DNA of 64,000 bases from Octopus vulgaris (taxonomy: Eukaryota), in NCBI GenBank assembly GCA_951406725.2, contig OX597819.1, positions 24,118,001-24,182,000 of the forward strand, given 5' to 3'. The notes under the pieces were generated by a model. It made no database searches, was not told the origin of the DNA, and worked only from the letters and a program-made list of their open reading frames with translations. Shown here one piece after another: positions 2,891 to 46,643 of this stretch. Position numbers and translations under genes: made by a program. Every line of letters begins with the position of its first letter. The stretch's first letter is position 1.

Positions 2891-2942
<52 letters not shown>

Positions 2943-3428
2943 GCGAGAAAAAAGCAACAAGAATGGATAGGTTTTTAGTACAATCGTTTCATACAAGGAC
3001 AGGCTTTATTAAAAGTAGCAAAAATTGCAGCATATAAACGTGTTGCGTACTCATCAGCTAAAATACATGTGAGTTCTCTAGACATCCTAGTGGTTGAGGC
3101 TATACTCATGAAGTAATGTAGATAATTAAGTAACATAAACAGATTTCCAAAGTTCATTAAAGTTCATTAAAGATGATGTACAGTCTTATCACAGAATTTT
3201 AAAAAAGTTTTAATAGCATCACAGAGAAGGTAACTTAATCCATAGTGTACATATGAATTTCCAGAGATATGAGGAGGGATTACATACTCACAGACGACAA
3301 ATTTATCCATTGCTAATCACAACGAGGTGGGTTTCAATTCCTGCTTATTAGCATTACAGAGAGGGTGAATTAATCCTTTGTATAGATGCACAATTTCCAA
3401 TGGTGTAGATGTAAATTTCCAGAGAAAT
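2943..3428 (-). repeat. Left inverted arm (copy of the pseudo-LTR)
   Basis: Reverse complement of 5605-6090 with about 5 mismatches by eye. The ORF track shows twin 60-aa ORFs at 2975-3157(-) and 5876-6058(+). Confidence 0.95.
2973..3063 (-). ncRNA. Type I hammerhead ribozyme motif (left arm)
   Basis: Minus strand reads ttttag CTGATGA gtacgcaacac...tgtccttgtat GAAA CGATTG TA ctaaaa; helix I is ttttag/ctaaaa. Confidence 0.78.
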
Positions 3429-4479
3429 CTCTCATAGATATCATAGAATTATTTCTAGGAAAACAGTTAGGATTTCTTATTCAACCCTCCCAAATATGTC
3501 CACTTTAATAGCTAAGATTAATAATAACAACATTAAACTAGCCAGGAAAAATAGAAATAAAAATAATAATATCAGCATGAATACCAATAGCAATTATAAT
3601 ATTACTACCAACAATAAAAACAGCAATAGTAACTATCAAAACATGGGTGAAATTAGTTACCACAGAATGACTAATAACATTAACATTAATAGTAATAATA
3701 ACAATACCGATATTAATAGAAGTAATAATGTTAATAATAGAAATAATAGAAATAAGGCTAATAGAGAAAATAAGGAGAATGAAAATATCAGTGATATCTA
3801 TAGCAACAATATGCAGTCGGATAAAAAGACTAACAATAATAGTAACATTACCAATAATATAAGAAATCATGGTAGGACTTTAGACCTAAAAGATGAAACA
3901 GAAGGATCAATAAATAATAGCAATACTTTAGATATCAGCACCAACTATAGAAATATTAATAACAATAAGGACAATTATACTCATGATAATCAAAATAATA
4001 GGAACCTAAGACATCTACCCAAGAATAATCCAAAACCTGAAGTTGTTCCTCCTGTGTGTAAGTGTAGAATAAAATCAAAATGCCCGGCACCTGGTCTATG
4101 CGGGGAAAATAATGTAATCTATAAATGTACCATATCCACGGAGAATAACAAATATTTTTACATTGGATGTACAATTAATTTTCTAGCCAGAGTTAGAAAT
4201 CACATCTCGTCTTTTAAATTACGTCATAAAGCTGGTACCACCACACTTTCAAACAAAATCTGGGAACTCAAAAATAATAATAATAATTACAACCTTAATT
4301 GGGAAATAGTTAGGAGAGCAATTCCGTATAAAAATAGCAGGGTTGGTTGCCAACTATGCTCCATGGAGACGTATGAAATTCTAAAGCATAGAAAACATAG
4401 AAACTTATTGAATAACCATATCGAACTAGGTCAAGTTTGTGTCCACGCTAAATTGGAGACTTTAAAATATTTAAAATGA
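3421..4479 (+). CDS. C-terminal part of a Penelope-like RT-EN polyprotein: linker, Asn-rich insert, Cys motif and GIY-YIG endonuclease (first ATG at 3496)
   Basis: CKCRIKSKCPAPGLC (4057-), VIY (4114-4122)...YIG (4159-4167), R..NH, TTLSNKIWELK, CQLCSME, LLN, terminal CVH. The frame stays open upstream of the ATG as HRYHRIISRKTVRISYSTLPNM, matching the PLE post-RT motif HKIFNRNTVKVSYSCMPN as I recall it. Confidence 0.88.
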   Translation, partial: REISHRYHRIISRKTVRISYSTLPNMSTLIAKINNNNIKLARKNRNKNNNISMNTNSNYNITTNNKNSNSNYQNMGEISYHRMTNNININSNNNNTDINRSNNVNNRNNRNKANRENKENENISDIYSNNMQSDKKTNNNSNITNNIRNHGRTLDLKDETEGSINNSNTLDISTNYRNINNNKDNYTHDNQNNRNLRHLPKNNPKPEVVPPVCKCRIKSKCPAPGLCGENNVIYKCTISTENNKYFYIGCTINFLARVRNHISSFKLRHKAGTTTLSNKIWELKNNNNNYNLNWEIVRRAIPYKNSRVGCQLCSMETYEILKHRKHRNLLNNHIELGQVCVHAKLETLKYLK

Positions 4480-5604
4480 TTAGAATACTCGTAACTAGAT
4501 AGATAGATAGATATAACTTGATTTTTACTAGTATAGCACTGCTTTAAGTAGATAACTAAGAGTTCTCACACTACAGTTATCTTTTTCCTTATATCTGCAT
4601 CAGTTTTTTTTGAGAACAGGGAAATGAATAGTACTTATACGCTGCTTAATTGAGGCTTTATTTAATTTCAAACTCATAATTTTAAATTTTTAAATCTTAA
4701 TTTTAAATCTTAATTTTAATTTTAATTTTAATTCTTAACTTAATCTAATTTAAGTAGCATAACTTTAATAAAATAAAATGAGTTACTAAAGCCCCATAAT
4801 TCTATTTCAAAATTAAATAAATAAGGCTACTCCCTCGGTGATAATATGATTATCTTCATTATGATAGACAATTCCCTAACACCTTGTAAATGATCTTCTA
4901 AGATTTGACCTGTAGTCCGTCAATGTATGAATAATAACGGCAACTCCTTAAGACAGTAAAATGAATAAAATAAATAAATAAATTTTAATAACTTTTTGAT
5001 AAGATTATACTTAGATTTTCCTAATGTATTTTCTTTTGATTTTAGCCTTTGACCACTAAACCCCTAAACCCCTGACCGTGTTATCTCTTTAGATTCTCTT
5101 TAAATTCATAGCTGCTTTCGACAGCAATAAATTAGCTGTTTTACTGGTCAAAGAATAATATTCTCCTCTAGTTCCTAGATGCCTGTAAATTAAAACCAGA
5201 CTTGCCGTCTACTAATTCTTCTGTATAACTAGAACCCTCTTTTTTTCTTTTTCTTTTTTTCCCTTCTTTCCCTATTTCTTTCTCTTTTCTCTTTTTTTTT
5301 TTTTCTTCTTCTTCTTATTCTCTTTTTCTTTTTTTCTTTTTCCTTTTCTCTTCTCTTCTAGCCCCCCCCCTTTTGCTCCCTCCCCCTTTATTTTCTCTCT
5401 TTCCTTCTCTTTCCTTCCCTTTTCTGTTCTTTGCCTCTCCAGAAAGCCCTTCAGCCTTTAAAAGTTAAATAGCTACAGTCTCTTGAAAATAGCAGTAATG
5501 TGATTAATGTGGCAAATACCTAATCATATAGCAAGAATTGATACCCACCCCATTGTGTTCAACCATTGATAAATTTATCGCCTGTGAATATGAAATTCCT
5601 CTTC

Positions 5605-6090
5605 ATTTCTCTGGAAATTTACATCTACACCATTGGAAATTGTGCATCTATACAAAGGATTAATTCACCCTCTCTGTAATGCTAATAAGCAGGAATTGAA
5701 ACCCACCTCGTTGTGATTAGCAATGGATAAATTTGTCGTCTGTGAGTATGTAATCCCTCCTCATATCTCTGGAAATTCATATGTACACTATGGATTAAGT
5801 CACCTTCTCTGTGATGCTATTAAAACTTTTTTAAAATTCTGTGATAAGACTGTACATCATCTTTAATGAACTTTAATGAACTTTGGAAATCTGTTTATGT
5901 TACTTAATTATCTACATTACTTCATGAGTATAGCCTCAACCACTAGGATGTCTAGAGAACTCACATGTATTTTAGCTGATGAGTACGGGACACGTTTATA
6001 TGCTGCAATTTTTGCAACTTTTAATAAAGCCTGTCCTTGTATGAAACGATTGTACTAAAAACCTATCCATTCTTGTTTCTTTTTTCTCGC
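5605..6090 (+). repeat. Right arm (pseudo-LTR) of the Penelope-like element
   Basis: Inverted counterpart of 2943-3428. Confidence 0.95.
5970..6060 (+). ncRNA. Type I hammerhead ribozyme motif (right arm); predicted cleavage after GUA at 6054
   Basis: Helix I 5970-5975/6055-6060; CTGATGA 5976-5982; helix II gtacgggaca/tgtccttgtat; GAAA 6043-6046; helix III ACGATTGT; GTA 6052-6054. Confidence 0.85.
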
Positions 6091-6207
6091 TTATAATCAC
6101 CCCACATTACTGTATTGTTAAAACCGTATAGTTTGTTTTGGTGCATCTAAGTTAGGTACCATATTCAAGTAAATTCATTTAAATTAACTTGAATCTTTAT
6201 TGCTTTT

Positions 6208-6246
<39 letters not shown>

Positions 6247-6384
6247 CTGTAGTGTGGTTTATAGGGCATGGTATACAATGTGATCCTTTGTTCTGTATTT
6301 CAAAGCTGTGTTACTAGGTATCTAATTAATTTCAAATTCTATTAATTTTCATCCATATCTAGAAAACAATGTATATATATAAAT

Positions 6385-6811
6385 AAAAAAAAAGGCATCG
6401 GAGGGGCGATGAATACCCTGCGCGCAGATATATATATTTTTTTGCACATTATAGTGTGACTTACAGTGAGTTACTTACCCATGCTTTTAATTGAACTAAA
6501 TTAAGCTCTGTAAGTGTTTGACTTAAAGAGCCTACAGTCGCATATGTATGTATGTACTCACATGTGTCTACATGCATGGGTACAGCATGATCCTTCCACA
6601 CGTAGATGAGGCGTGATTCATATGATAAAGAAAGCGAACAAAATGAAAAACCTCTAGAAAATATTGAGAAGTGTATGACCACTTGCTTATCGAGAAATTT
6701 GTAAATTCGATTAAAAAATGTTTATTTAAGTATCACCATTATAGCTATTTATACTCTCGTGAAATTAAGAAATTAACTTGTAAATAAACGAAAACCCTCG
6801 AATACATCACT

Positions 6812-6870
<59 letters not shown>

Positions 6871-7065
6871 CGTATACTTATGTATGTATTTATGCATGTT
6901 TGAAGATAATTAAACCATATTTTTATCATTTTGAGCCACTCTCCCAGTGAATATTTCTGCCAAGTTTCGTGAAAATCAGTTTAGCGGTTTTCCAGTAATT
7001 TTGCAAACAAACAGACAAACAAAAGTGATTACAACACAATGCTTTCGCTTACACGCGCAGGGTAA
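6385..7065 (-). mobile_element. Non-autonomous Helentron-associated (HINE/DINE-1-like) element
   Basis: 11-bp subterminal inverted repeats taccctgcgcg (6414-6424) / cgcgcagggta (7054-7064); hairpin catcg-gagggg-cgatg beside an A-run at one end; internal (CA)n; caagtttcgtgaaaatc...caaacaaacagacaaac block. Confidence 0.6.
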
Positions 7066-7239
7066 ACGTGAAGAATACAGCCCATACGTTAATTCAGTAC
7101 ATCCTTTCACTTTGCAGAATCTTGATTCTGTTAAAACGATGAACTTTCAGACTACTATACATTATTTCAAGGCAAGTATACAAACTCTGATGATTTCACG
7201 ATGTAGTCTGAATGTAAAGTACATCTCTGCCTAACAGAA

Positions 7240-8230
<991 letters not shown>

Positions 8231-8257
8231 ATAGATATATACACAATATACATCGTA

Positions 8258-8651
8258 CTCTCTCTTTTTACTCTTTTACATGTTTCAGTCATTTGACTGC
8301 GGCCATGCAGGAGCACAGCCTTTAGTCGAGCAAATCGACCCCAGGACTTTGTAAGCCTAGTACTTATTGTATCGGTCTATTTTGCCGAACTGATAAGTTA
8401 CGGGGACATGAACACACCAGCATCGGTTGTCAAGCGATGTTGGGAGACAAACACAGACACACAAACACACGCATATATATATACATATACACGACATGCT
8501 TCTTTCAGTTTCCGTCTACTACCAAATCCACTCACAAGGCTTTGGTCGGACCGAGGCTATAGTAGAAGACACTTGCCCAAAGTGCCACGCAGTGGGACTG
8601 AACCCGGAACCATGTGGTTGGTAAGCAAGCTAGTTACCACACAGCCACTCC
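8258..8651 (-). mobile_element. SINE group 3 (tRNA head, CORE-like gcaccttgggcaagtg block, internal microsatellite, gtaaaaga-repeat tail)
   Basis: Minus strand begins ggagtggctgtgtggtaa...gggttcagtccc and ends catggccgcagtcaaatgactgaaaca; many copies in the window. Confidence 0.85.
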
Positions 8652-8904
8652 TATATGTACACAAGTATATTTATCGGTATTTGCTTTCATTGGTAAAATT
8701 ATATTCTTTTATAAGTTGTTCTATTTACAAATAGTTTTTTTTAAAATATTGGCCTTGTAAAGAAATATAAAATGATATTTAATAAAGGAATCTGATTATA
8801 ATGTAACCCACTTCAGATGATGTCAGTGATGGTATCAATAGTGGTGGTAGGTGGGACAGTGTCACTGACTGCATGAAAGGATTGTTAATATTCTCTGAGC
8901 TCAG

Positions 8905-27879: not shown

Positions 27880-29139
27880 AGGTTTGGACAAAATAATGGA
27901 AACACCTAGGATCATAGCAGCATGGTTTTCAAATATCTATAAAACCGTCAAAAGTTTGTTTATTTTTATGTTTTTTGATATATTGTTAGTGTTGCTTAAT
28001 ATATTTTGCTAAAATTGTTTATTTTCAGATATAATCAGAAAAAGGTAATGAAAATTCATTAAAATGACAGATCTATCGGAGTTTCAAAGATGTCAAATTG
28101 TTGGTGCTGTATGGCAAGCGCTAGCATAAAGAAAACAGCTGAAATGTTTGGTGCGTCAACAAGTAATGTCTCGAAAGTAATAACAGCCTTTGAGAAAGAG
28201 GGTGAAACCTCCTCGTCGAAACAAAACTCCAGAAAAAAACCAAAACATTCAGATAGAGACCGTCGGACTCTTACTTCACTTGCTAGAAAGGATCACAAAA
28301 GTACAGCTCCCAAAATTACTGCAGAGCTTAATGACCACCTCGCGAACCCAGTTTCTACAAAAACTGTTCGCCGGGAGCTGCACAAAGCCGCATTTCACGG
28401 GAGGGCTGCAATCAGAAAAACCACTACTTTCAAAAGCAAACGTTGCAAAGCATTTAGAGTTGAGTAAAAACCTACAGAATTGGTCCCTAGAGCAGTGTAA
28501 GAATGTTATTTTCTCGGACGAGTCATCCTTTACCTTATTTCCGACCACCGGCCGAGTAAACGTGTGGAGACAGCCAAAAGCAGCATTTGAACTAGACTGC
28601 CTTCTTCCGATTGGAGGAGGATCTGTGATGATGGAGGGGTGGGGGCTATATCTTGGAAATCTGCCAGCCCAATGGTTTCCGTTCATTGCAGAATTAAAAG
28701 TCAACACTATTTAAGCATTTTATCGGATTAGATTTATCCTATGGTTGCGGAACTGTTTCCAGAAGGAAACGCAATCTTTTAGGATGATAATGCACCAATT
28801 CACACAGGTGAAATTGTTACTGAATGGCACGAGGAACATTCTAGTGAAGATGAACATCTTATCTGGCCACCACAGTCCCCAGATCTCAATATTATTAAAC
28901 ATTTATGGTGCATTTAAAAGAAAAGTAAGGAGTCGATATCTTCCACCATCATCACTACAAGAACTGGCGACAGTTTTAGCTGAAGAATGGGCAAAAATTC
29001 CTTTGGAAACAATTCAAAGTTTGTACAAATCCATACTTCGTACAATTCAAATTTTAATTACTGCCAAAGGCGGTCCTACTCCATATTAAAATAAATTTGT
29101 TTGAAATTTTAAGGTGTTTCCATTATCTTATCCAAACCC
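27880..29139 (+). mobile_element. Full-length Tc1-like DNA transposon
   Basis: ~28-bp TIRs ggtttggacaaaataatggaaacacct / aggtgtttccattatcttatccaaacc, flanked by TA repeats. Confidence 0.92.
28064..29089 (+). pseudogene. Tc1 (DD34E-type) transposase with frameshifts and stops
   Basis: MTDLSEFQRCQIVGA...VSTKTVRRELH...VIFSDESSF...GGGSVM...DDNAPIH...WPPQSPDLNII...AKGGPTPY, spread over three frames. Confidence 0.92.
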
Positions 29140-29152
29140 TATATATATATAG

Positions 29153-29530
29153 TGAAGGGCAGCAGACTTGTGGTCGTAGGATCGCGATTTCGATTCCCAG
29201 ACTGGGCGTTGTGAGTGTTTATTGAGCGAAAACACCTAAACTTCCACGAGGCTCCGGCAGTGGGGTGGTTGTCGAACCCTACTGCACTCCTTCACCACAA
29301 CTTTCTCGCACTCGTTCTCCCCGTTTCTGTTGCACTTGTATTTCAAAGGGCCAGCCTGCTTCCACTCTGTATTACGGTGAATCTCCCTGAGAACTACGTT
29401 AAGGGTATGCGAGTCTGTGGATTGCTCAGCCACTTGCACGTAACCGACAGATTATATATTTATATATATAATCTGTCGGTTACGACGACGAGGGTTCCAG
29501 TTGATCCGATCAACGGAACTAGTGAAATTA
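29153..29530 (+). mobile_element. SINE group 1 (head 1 + tail B) with inverted tail
   Basis: Matches the reverse complement of 35894-36282; the last ~60 bp is present in inverted orientation. Confidence 0.8.
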
Positions 29531-29560
29531 TATATATATACATGCATGTATATATTTCTG

Positions 29561-29630
<70 letters not shown>

Positions 29631-29790
29631 CGCGCGTGTGTGTGTGTATGTGTGTGTGTGACTGAGATTCAATTCAATTAGGTACAAAGTTACTAGCCGT
29701 GAGGAAACCAACACCATTTGTCAAGCAGTGCTGAGACAGACAGACACGCACACACGCGCATACACACACACACCACACATACACATACAC

Positions 29791-29849
<59 letters not shown>

Positions 29850-29923
29850 CACAAACACATGAAGTTGAAAGCAATCTCGTACTATCCGCACAGGATAATA
29901 AGCAACAGGATATCAAGTAGTGA

Positions 29924-30009
29924 TGCAGTACGACCGTTTGAAGCGGCTCCATTTAATTGAACAATGCAATCATTACATCAATTTAAATGCAGTGCCCTCT
30001 TCAGCTGCA
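29924..30009 (-). ncRNA. Hammerhead motif, second family (core G of GAAA mutated)
   Basis: Minus strand: tgcag CTGAAGA gggc...ccgctt CAAA CGGTCG TA ctgca. Confidence 0.6.
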
Positions 30010-30163
30010 GAAATAAGTGTGCTTCATGCAATTCTTGGAACTGTAGTCTATTCTTAGCTACAATAGCGACAACATGAATTTTTTCCATCTTCTTGGTCTG
30101 TTAAATATTTGAGGAAAATTATATTAATGTGTCCGACTGGTTAAAACTCTATTTATATATTTG

Positions 30164-30249
30164 TGCAACTGAAGATGGCATTGCATTTAAGTTGATGTAA
30201 TGATTGCATTGCTCAATTAAATGAAGTCGCTTGAAACGGTCGTACTGCA
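30164..30249 (+). ncRNA. Hammerhead motif, second family
   Basis: tgcaa CTGAAGA (30169-30175) ... GAAA (30233-30236) CGGTCG TA ctgca. Confidence 0.68.
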
Positions 30250-31703
30250 TCACTACTTGATAACCTATTGCTTATTTTGACACACACACACATATACATT
30301 GATACATACATACATACATAATACATACATACATAATACATACATACATACATATAGTATCTTGTTTTAGTGCTGGAGCACTGCCTTATAGGATTTTAGT
30401 CGATCAAATCGACACCTCTACTTATTTTTAGTCTGTTATTCTATCGTTCTCTTTTGCCCAGTCATAAAGTTACTAGTCGTGAGAAAACCAATACCAGTTG
30501 TCAAGCAGTGTGGAGAAAGACAGACAGACACACATAAGTATATATTTATATATATACATACACAAACATATGAAGTTGAAAATATCATTCCTTTGGCTAA
30601 AAAGCTTAATCTATTCTCGGGTCTAATATCTTCACCTGTCCTAGGGTGCCTACAGCGAAGTTCACATTACGCTCATGACTTTGGTTTTAAGATATTTCAT
30701 CCATGGTCTTGGAGGACTCTCCTTTCTGTAATTCAGCCATTAAAAGTAATCCTTTCTACTATAGACACAAATCAGGAAATCTTTTGAGGTGGGGCTAGTC
30801 GATTGCATCAACCTCAATATTCAATTGATACTTATTTTATTGACTCCGAAAGAATGAAAAACAAAGTCGACCCTGCAGCGTTTGAACTCTTGACGTAAAG
30901 CCGGGAGCAATGCTGCTAAGCATTAGCTGTATCGTGCGGTAACGATTCTGCCAGCGGTAACGATTCTGCCAGCTTCAAAGCCATTAAAGAATAACAGACA
31001 CATAGAAATATAAGGATCAACAGTAGTAGTTCATCAAGAACCAAAAGCAGAAGTTATATGAAGTTGAATATATACATTTTCAAACAAGCTTATTCTATGT
31101 GGCACCAGCAAATGGTCCGTTTCCAAGAGAAACAAATTGTTGTTCCTCGATTTTATTGGAACACCTGGTACGATGTTCTGACAAAATCCCTAATGTAAAT
31201 TGTTTATAAACTTCTGGCATTCTTCCAAAAACTTGTCTTGAAAATTCCATCGGTTTATCTTAGGTTCCTTTTACCTCAGCACTTTATCTAACACCAATTA
31301 ATTATTTTTGTTTTTCCTCTTTTTTTTTTTACCCCATAAATTTATTACCGTTTCGCTTCTTTCTCTTTCCCTTTCTAATACTTCTGTTCACCGGCGGTGG
31401 ACTGGCAAAATCGTTAGATACCATATTTGCGAGAATGCCCTGTGATATTTGTTCCGGCTCATTACGTTCTGAGTTCAAATCCCTCCCAGGCTAACTTTGC
31501 CTACAGAGTCGATAATAAAACCACTGGAATTGAAGTAATCGATTAATTCCTCTTCCTAAGTACATGAACTTGTACCTGACTTAAAAACCATTATACTTTT
31601 ATGCAAACGCTAAATTCTTTGGTTTTTTATTTTTAATCTTTATAATACAGCTCTTCTTCTCTAAGCATTCTTTCCTTCTTTCTTTCTTTCCTTCTTTCTT
31701 TAT

Positions 31704-34313: not shown

Positions 34314-34344
34314 CTAAATAAGCAACAAGGATATCCAGGAGTAA

Positions 34345-34431
34345 TGCAGTTTGATCGTTTCATGCAACTCCATTTAATTGAACAATGCAACCATTACATC
34401 AATTTAAAATGCAGAGCAATCCTCAGTTGCA
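34345..34431 (-). ncRNA. Decayed hammerhead motif, second family
   Basis: Minus strand: tgcaa CTGAGGA ttgc...gttgcat GAAA CGATCA AA ctgca; homologous to 29924-30009; cleavage triplet mutated. Confidence 0.55.
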
Positions 34432-34886
34432 CAAAGACACAGAATTTAATTAACTTAAAACTTAAAATCTCCAAGAAGTTAAGGAGATAGACAAAGAACA
34501 TGCTGCCTTCACTTCAGCTTAGAAGCTACTAAGTTATCAGGAAGAGAGATTTGTTACAGATTTTGCTTGTCACTGTTTTTTATGGGGTCAGTTTAAATTT
34601 ATAGACTAGTTGTATATCTAATGCCGAGAGAACAAGGGGCAGCGTCTGTTAGGGGTAGGGCTGAGGGAGTAGATAAAAGAGGAGACAACCGATGAAGGAA
34701 TTGTTCTTTATGTTGCCTGTCTCGTTTCTCTATTTCTTTCGTTGTTCGAAAAAAAGTTCGTTTTCCACGTTTTTGTTTTTCTATGTTCTCGATTTTCATT
34801 TTGTTCACGTTTTTTGACGTCTTGTACCCATATATGCATGTATATATACATATATATGTATGTACATATGCATATATATTATTTAT

Positions 34887-46007: not shown

Positions 46008-46643
46008 TCGATGTACAAAATAACGTGGAACGTGTTACATGTAGCAATCTCTCTCTCTCTCTCGCCCTTCCTCTCTCGCTCCAAAATCTCTAAAAGAGGT
46101 CATATACGAATTCCGGAGAAGCATTCGCTGTATGTATACATGCATGTATGTACACACACACACACACACACACACATCTATATATATGCGCGTGGGTGTG
46201 TGTGTGTATATATATACACAAAGAAAGAGAGGAGATGCGAGAGAGAGAGTGAGAGAGAAAGAGTGAGAAAGAAAGAGAGAGAGATATAGATGTATTTGCA
46301 GACACAACAAAAATTCTTGATTTATCAAAAAGGATCTCCACCTGTAGAGGATGCTTCATAATTACCAAACGTCAATTAAGGCCAACTTCACATGACAAAG
46401 GTGGATTATCTCAAGAATCAAGAGTTCTCCAAACTTGACATGCCATTGACGAAAAGGAAAGACTTATTCTCTGAAGAGGATAGTAATGAACACGTGGTTT
46501 TACCCCAATAGGTATCATCAGCATTATAATTATGCTGTCTTATCTCCAGTAACCAGGGGACATACTCATAAACAAAAAACACTTTTGCCGCTTAGGTAAT
46601 TTGCATAATATCTATCTGCCGTATCTCTCTTCCTCCCCTCTCT

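Follow-up and report, generated by a model that had tools for sequence, protein, structure and literature searches.

We found that a 380-base hairpin-shaped unit in a 64,000-nt window of Octopus vulgaris DNA (the whole stretch analyzed, in whose positions all coordinates are given) is what remains of an old Penelope-like element (PLE) insertion, now dead, in which two 3′ ends lie head to head. Specifically, the unit is very probably one insertion of an abundant PLE family, consisting of a truncated 3′ end and a shorter, inverted copy. The "extremely truncated PLE" that the initial annotation had offered as one option is supported by this arrangement and by breakpoints that vary between copies.

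Architecture of the unit

The two arms of the unit (29897–30015 and 30158–30276) are 119 nt each and 90.8% identical (108/119). The left one is a short inverted arm on the (−) strand, a 5′-truncated copy of the last 119 nt of the family that matches the reverse complement of 30158–30276. It is separated by a head-to-head junction of ~5 nt (30016–30020; filler or diverged family sequence) from the long arm on the (+) strand (30021–30280), a 5′-truncated non-coding 3′ end of the family that comprises the apparent spacer, the right arm, and 4 nt more. These last letters (30277–30280) are the first four of a 3′ extension found in other family copies, and no ORF or RT/EN remnant was found in the long arm. 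The unit is asymmetric and has no spacer of its own: the apparent spacer is part of the right-hand copy and is continuous with the right arm.

A third, solo copy of the family is located at 34317–34545 on the (−) strand (its 5′ limit is approximate), with a (TA)n run 6 nt from its end. Its arm (34317–34435) shares 83–84% identity with either of the other two over 119 nt, and its upstream part weakly resembles the spacer (alignment score of 42; 3/1,000 shuffles scored as high). The whole 380-bp unit folds at −190 kcal/mol, compared with about −23 to −25 kcal/mol for one arm. Its right end adjoins CA/ATAC repeats, while its left end lies ~50 nt from the nearest (TA)n and abuts no repeat; no target-site duplication was seen by eye. 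The surrounding window is microsatellite-rich animal DNA.

Hammerhead motifs in the arms

Each arm, read outward, carries CTGAAGA, a 57-nt region, (C/G)AAA, ACGGTCGT, A, and CTGCA, which places helices I, II, and III of a type I hammerhead around the core. In the left arm, the decayed motif spans 29924–30009 on the (−) strand, with helix I at 30009–30005/29928–29924 (5 bp), the core at 30004–29998, the helix II region at 29997–29941, CAAA at 29940–29937, helix III at 29937–29930, and a would-be cut after 29929. The decayed motif of the right arm spans 30164–30249 on the (+) strand, with helix I at 30164–30168/30245–30249 (4 bp plus A·C), the core at 30169–30175, the helix II region at 30176–30232, GAAA at 30233–30236, helix III at 30236–30243, and a would-be cut after 30244, i.e., 32 nt before the arm end. 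The defect in the left arm is CAAA for GAAA (G12C at 29940). The right arm keeps all core boxes; its helix I is closed by an A2.1·C1.1 mismatch (30168). This A·C mismatch recurs in the third arm, which has also lost GUA (it is without U16.1), so that none of the three arms of this small family has an intact hammerhead. Thus, the inverted arms with outward-facing hammerheads of the initial annotation stand as arms and as a layout beyond chance, but not as a complete hammerhead in either arm.

The helix III region of 8 nt is self-complementary, as previously noted, and can form either 2 bp plus a loop or a dimer that pairs over all 8 nt (−5.8 kcal/mol). The helix II region of the three arms (57–58 nt) folds at −15 to −16 kcal/mol (z of −2.5, −3.4, and −3.5 against mononucleotide shuffles), and helix II of the family is predicted to be long (about 21 bp) with a U10.1·U11.1 base. 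In comparison, the helix II region of a neighboring 3.3-kb element (see below) gave weaker z values of −2.0 and +1.0. None of the unconstrained folds of the five whole motifs in the window was significant (z of −1.63 to +0.39), and the best unconstrained fold of the right arm pairs CUG with helix III.

The five motifs counted in the initial annotation were recovered at 3057(−), 5976(+), 30004(−), 30169(+), and 34426(−). A strict descriptor gave three matches in the window and a relaxed one gave six; over 100 rounds of block-wise dinucleotide shuffling, the mean numbers of matches were 0.04 and 0.48, respectively. The sixth relaxed match, at 46466–46535 on the (−) strand (core at 46521), has a 5-bp helix I, a short helix II, and A at G12; it is a possible decayed short-helix-II hammerhead, at chance level. 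Rfam returned no hammerhead among 4 matches at the unit (E-value of up to 10) and none among the 150 listed of 327 matches in the whole window. The covariation claimed as support for the fold exists but is slight. Between the two families (n = 2), both partners are changed at 2/5 helix I pairs; among the three small-family arms, both partners are changed at only 1/28 pairs, no more than shuffles give (177/500).

As a control, a core-pattern scan of metagenomes yielded 56 loci, only 2 of which reach at least 4 helix I pairs. None of the 56 resembles the unit or the 3.3-kb endonuclease by BLAST, and we treated these loci as chance matches rather than relatives.

A neighboring 3.3-kb element of the Hydra type

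The 3.3-kb element (2938–6095, (+) strand) is a young, 5′-truncated Hydra-type PLE copy with an inverted 491-nt copy of its 3′ end, and its arms are 99% complementary. It has the same layout as the 380-bp unit and a 60-nt helix II region, and its cut site lies 41 nt from the end. The ORF starts in the RT-to-EN linker (tblastn remnants at 3364–3540, with an E-value of 1e-4 at best) and continues with an N-rich insert, of a kind described for Adineta Pen2a (Arkhipova et al. 2013, PMC3846280), and then with an endonuclease that has CxCX5C, CxxC, and CxH and lacks the CCHH cysteines. Since the Hydra clade is recognized by an EN with a CxCX5C linker, CxxC, and CxH and no CCHH, together with an RT with DKT, these endonuclease motifs identify the element as Hydra-type. 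From the stop codon of the endonuclease to the hammerhead, there are ~1.5 kb.

A HMMER search with this endonuclease found 3,432 relatives, some of which are RT+GIY-YIG proteins, and CxCX5C was present in 114 of the 150 best. Pfam assigned GIY-YIG/RVT_1 to the relatives below threshold only, and a word-index protein search for longer relatives returned 0/101 candidates. The closest relative (76% identity) is an Octopus sinensis protein annotated as "myelin gene regulatory factor-like A," which is probably a mis-name.

The small family and the 3.3-kb element do not align in their 3′ regions above shuffles (score of 29; shuffled mean of 23.3, maximum of 40). The likeness between their outer ends, on which the initial annotation had remarked, comes down to a few letters.

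Copies of the family in public sequence runs

Part of the stretch around the unit occurs in 20 of the 24 listed public runs (organisms A–D), none of which contains half of its words, and four runs were compared at 80% likeness, i.e., DNA runs X1, X3, and X7 (three organisms) and RNA run X23. The DNA runs contained 4,856, 5,069, and 3,925 fitting contigs, respectively, mostly 90–99% alike. The summed depth, which is no direct measure of copy number, set against ~45 to ~60 per single contig suggests that the family has thousands of copies.

We found that these copies differ in where they are broken. All 24 listed pieces (of 14,091) fall within 30021–30280, where they lead from the spacer into the right arm or right across it, and the stretch is not spanned by any of those listed. 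The contigs begin at 30021–30128 and run into or through the right arm, and 35 contigs in X3 extend upstream of 30021 with sequence absent from this locus. Moreover, in 38 contigs of X1 and 58 of X3, the left arm continues past 30016 into sequence that is, by eye, like the right arm's own upstream and unlike 30016–30040, and the summed depth dips to 6,000–8,700 at 30010–30024. Among the joints listed (15 of 99), 12 distinct arm-to-body joints were present, with short arms of 21–120 nt and long arms of 63–251 nt (119 + 256 nt at the locus); in one table, each joint is represented by one contig per run, and 11 of the 12 are at a depth of 33–61. The joint 29965>30026 carries 21 inserted letters that match the upstream continuation and that internal deletion of a fixed element therefore cannot supply. 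Taken together, 5′ truncation, an inverted copy of the 3′ end, and variable breakpoints are the features of a PLE insertion, and a miniature element of fixed design, as first proposed, finds no support at this locus, given breakpoints that differ between copies and the continuation of the element upstream elsewhere. Joints between opposite strands were left out of the count of inversions, since an ordinary copy divided between both arms would also produce one.

On the 3′ side, loose ends run on for a median of 20–30 nt in 107–144 contigs per DNA run, with a consensus agreement of 0.55–0.61 (consensuses from 24 of 814 rows listed), and may correspond to the 30–40-bp tail of PLEs. The left flank (29860–29889) had a depth of 0 in all four runs, and the exact insertion was not re-found there. 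At 29984 and 29992, loose ends show different helix I and II letters around a kept CUGAGGA box (46–102 contigs per listed row); judged from these letters, they are putative sister subfamilies.

At the level of the family, the claim of a second family of long-helix-II hammerheads is supported, since the majority letters restore G12 and G2.1. Among the 40 of 109 variant rows listed, the letter restoring G12 at 29940 accounts for 95–99% of depth in the four runs, and 30168 reads G (G2.1) in 51–76% of DNA depth and in 24/25 RNA reads. In addition, about 99% read U at 10.1 (29997), and a helix III variant at 12–54% gives a perfect palindrome.

In the portion of RNA run X23 that was read (about 6 in 100), the 12.9 million reads include 368 fitting ones, which lie in both directions, and a fraction of 0.93 of these run on into unlike sequence, as expected for dispersed copies inside other transcripts. 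In this portion of an ordinary library, no pile of RNA ends was present at the would-be cuts (30244 and 29929), and the sole end pile comprised 5 molecules at 30248, 4 nt off the predicted cut. T>C was far more common in the RNA run than in the DNA runs at 30090, 30150, 30227, and 30254. We did not accept A-to-I editing of minus-strand transcripts as the cause because G>T and G>A shift equally, and copy-specific alleles fit as well.

Relationship to known elements

The 380-bp unit resembles an EN+ PLE insertion in that its 3′ ends meet head to head, its arms are unequal and each contain a hammerhead, and breakpoints vary among copies, as well as in the 3′ extension of other copies and the microsatellite-rich neighborhood. 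For PLEs, 5′ truncation, an adjoining inverted 5′-truncated copy, and a 30–40-bp tail are reported as common (Craig et al. 2021, PMC8557442), and pairs of hammerheads on opposite strands have been described 100–700 bp apart (Cervera and de la Pena 2014, PMC4209133). In contrast to described EN+ PLE insertions, the unit retains no ORF, shows no visible target-site duplication, and has an extension of ~4 nt.

Most likely, the small family belongs to the Hydra clade. A tblastn search with 154 proteins gave, among the best 25 of 39 rows outside the 3.3-kb ORF, no match close to 30 kb or to 34.4 kb, and because no protein is thereby linked to the small family, this assignment rests on the RNA motif, its position, and the endonuclease of the neighbor. 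Specifically, the small family shares with Hydra hammerheads the type I motif and, in its third copy, a possible association with (TA)n. The distance from the cut site to the 3′ end is 32–36 nt, as compared with ~36 nt in Hydra-1_Obim of Octopus bimaculoides and a range of ~30 to 50 nt for Hydra motifs (PMC8557442 files). In file S2 of the same paper, helix II starts from U·U in 14 of the 25 Hydra families and continues with UGC/GCA in 8 of the 25 (counted by eye). The small family follows this pattern, with U·U and then UGC/GCA in its loose-end consensuses and in arm C. As a natural variant, U10.1·U11.1 has been described before (PMC3088659, PMC7229834). However, the helix II region is 57–60 nt here versus 12–26 nt in the 25 published Hydra families (23 nt in Hydra-1_Obim; PMC8557442), and helix III is an 8-nt palindrome versus 9–10 nt in hammerheads of the Hydra clade. 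By eye, the family is unlike Hydra-1_Obim, and a search of the PMC8557442 supplement, in which line breaks can hide matches, did not recover any of four short motifs from the arms.

The small family also has features of metazoan non-LTR retrozymes, which are non-coding, a few hundred nt long, present in thousands of copies, and related to PLEs (PMC7229834; bioRxiv 10.64898/2026.07.22.740005), and which likewise have a type I hammerhead with a weak palindromic helix III. Retrozymes, however, are same-strand tandem repeats that yield circles, and same-strand tandem motifs are a necessity for them (bioRxiv 10.64898/2026.07.22.740005; PMC7229834; PMC7761336). At the 380-bp unit, the two motifs are on opposite strands and both are decayed, and no tandem array besides microsatellites was found in 29300–30900, which speaks against the retrozyme-like partner suggested earlier for this locus. 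No circle was seen either, although small circles need not show up in an ordinary RNA library.

Alternative explanations

It is possible, although on balance somewhat doubtful, that the parent of the insertion was a PLE derivative of a few hundred nt, SINE-like or retrozyme-like, that lacked an ORF, was non-autonomous and relied on Hydra proteins to move it in trans, perhaps being tandem elsewhere and circularized by its own hammerhead. This is a sub-variant of the best explanation, and the 380-bp locus would still be a truncated inverted insertion. The thousands of contigs, as opposed to a published octopus Hydra family noted with just 4 copies ending at the same site (PMC8557442), argue for such a parent, as do the missing ORF remnant and the description of non-autonomous PLEs and PLE-derived retrozymes (PMC8557442; bioRxiv 10.64898/2026.07.22.740005; PMC7229834). 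However, the ~1.5 kb between stop codon and hammerhead in the 3.3-kb neighbor makes 256 non-coding nt uninformative on autonomy, no go-back joint was present among the 15 of 99 joint rows listed, and the 3′ loose-end consensus is, by eye, unlike the spacer, so that any monomer would exceed about 260 nt.

Very improbably, the unit is a fixed fold-back or a MITE-like DNA element that has 119-bp terminal inverted repeats and is propagated in one piece, its hammerhead look being inherited or incidental. The clean terminal inverted repeats and the short non-coding middle fit such an element, middle and arms are both multi-copy, and the skip joints alone could be internal deletions. Nevertheless, a MITE would repeat as a fixed unit of inverted repeats and spacer with a target-site duplication, whereas no listed contig covers the whole unit or the left-arm/spacer junction and the junctions vary. 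The arms, each in its own orientation, extend into sequence resembling the spacer, and upstream of the spacer other copies have sequence that this locus lacks. At 34317, moreover, a single arm is preceded by spacer-like sequence. We consider this explanation largely refuted already. Independently of how the unit arose, the motif may have been a decayed or non-catalytic remnant even in the parent, with the long helix II having killed activity or become a protein-binding hairpin, which we think fairly unlikely. In keeping with a remnant, no arm of the small family is intact, the whole-motif folds are not significant, and RNA ends at the cut site were absent from the ~6 in 100 of run X23 read; moreover, insertion in vitro does not require PLE hammerheads, whose cutting is poor or depends on protein (PMC11167929). 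Against it stand the restoration of the core by majority letters in the public runs and the preservation of the core, helix I, and a palindromic helix III around a 57–60-nt insert in two unalignable families. The natural occurrence of U10.1·U11.1 and the rarity of four helix I pairs among metagenome core matches (2/56) point the same way.

Proposed origin of the insertion

For a single PLE insertion, we propose that DNA rich in AT and microsatellites was nicked on both strands by a PLE RT/GIY-YIG protein and that both nicked 3′ ends primed reverse transcription close to the RNA's 3′ end. Synthesis of both cDNAs would have ended prematurely, at about 256 and 119 nt, before the two were joined. 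The parent RNA would have carried a type I hammerhead about 32–36 nt from its 3′ end. As each arm includes 32 nt beyond the would-be cut, the template was presumably uncut (or re-ligated) RNA. The insertion is old if the arms began identical, as they now differ at 11/119 sites, and both copies have acquired hammerhead-disabling changes since then. A transcript of the locus would contain one sense and one antisense arm pairing into a 119-bp hairpin, and the hammerheads therefore cannot work here. In the parent, the motif would most likely cut weakly, as a dimer or with the help of protein, and so process tandem or read-through transcripts.

These steps agree with what is described for an anole PLE (PMC11167929), the protein of which cuts and extends both strands, uses uncut RNA, and starts at two nearby internal sites, which explains the tail. 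The anole element inserts equally well with a dead hammerhead, and that hammerhead needs protein to cut. An alternative to two-strand nicking is self-priming on antisense templates (Arkhipova et al. 2013, PMC3846280), and the present data do not separate the two.

A long helix II region in two families

The new element of this analysis is the putative helix II region of 57–60 nt, which occurs in two unrelated families. The insertion itself is ordinary, and the long-stem hammerhead, a predicted motif, is a modest novelty. No printed long-helix-II PLE or cephalopod hammerhead was found in the open literature; Repbase, Dfam, and subscription papers were outside the search, and the family may be catalogued there. 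The "long helix II" of a 2026 paper is 6–8 bp (PMC13725137). Craig et al. allowed 7–17 nt between the core boxes, and eight Naiads at 35–50 nt are listed as "half core" (PMC8557442). The nearest likeness is offered by PLE-X1_sMoe and PLE-X1_sTam of spike moss, with ~50 nt between core boxes and a flag reading "deviates from canonical structure" (PMC8557442 file S2), so that PLE hammerhead-like motifs with a long helix II region are not without precedent. However, these belong to EN-less plant elements and have a short stem and a large loop, whereas the octopus region is predicted to be paired along most of its length.

A broader reading, which we regard as distinctly unlikely, is that octopus-type genomes contain several high-copy PLE families with still-cleaving hammerheads whose helix II of 57–60 nt is mostly paired, a long-stem class missed by descriptor searches and Rfam models and possibly behind some of the "half-core" motifs of Naiads that are supposed to lack ribozymes. 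Within it, the small family may be an ORF-less, retrozyme-like passenger, its long stem binding protein or promoting dimers. If long-stem motifs do cleave, hammerhead censuses of animal genomes undercount. The thousands of natural variants would provide a ready test of PLE hammerhead function without the usual loop-loop contact. The octopus lineage is known for heavy A-to-I editing, and fold-back insertions of the small family would leave many potential double-stranded RNA hairpins.

Other features around the unit

Upstream of the unit, broken reading frames are present at 28063–29089, which by eye resemble a remnant of a Tc1/mariner transposase; Pfam returned no family for any of the three window ORFs tried, including 28184–28711. 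A diverged direct repeat (29686–29730 and 30466–30510) flanks the unit at a distance, with 91% identity over 45 nt and similarity over ~120 nt. Its two halves probably derive either from a common interspersed repeat or from a local duplication long ago.
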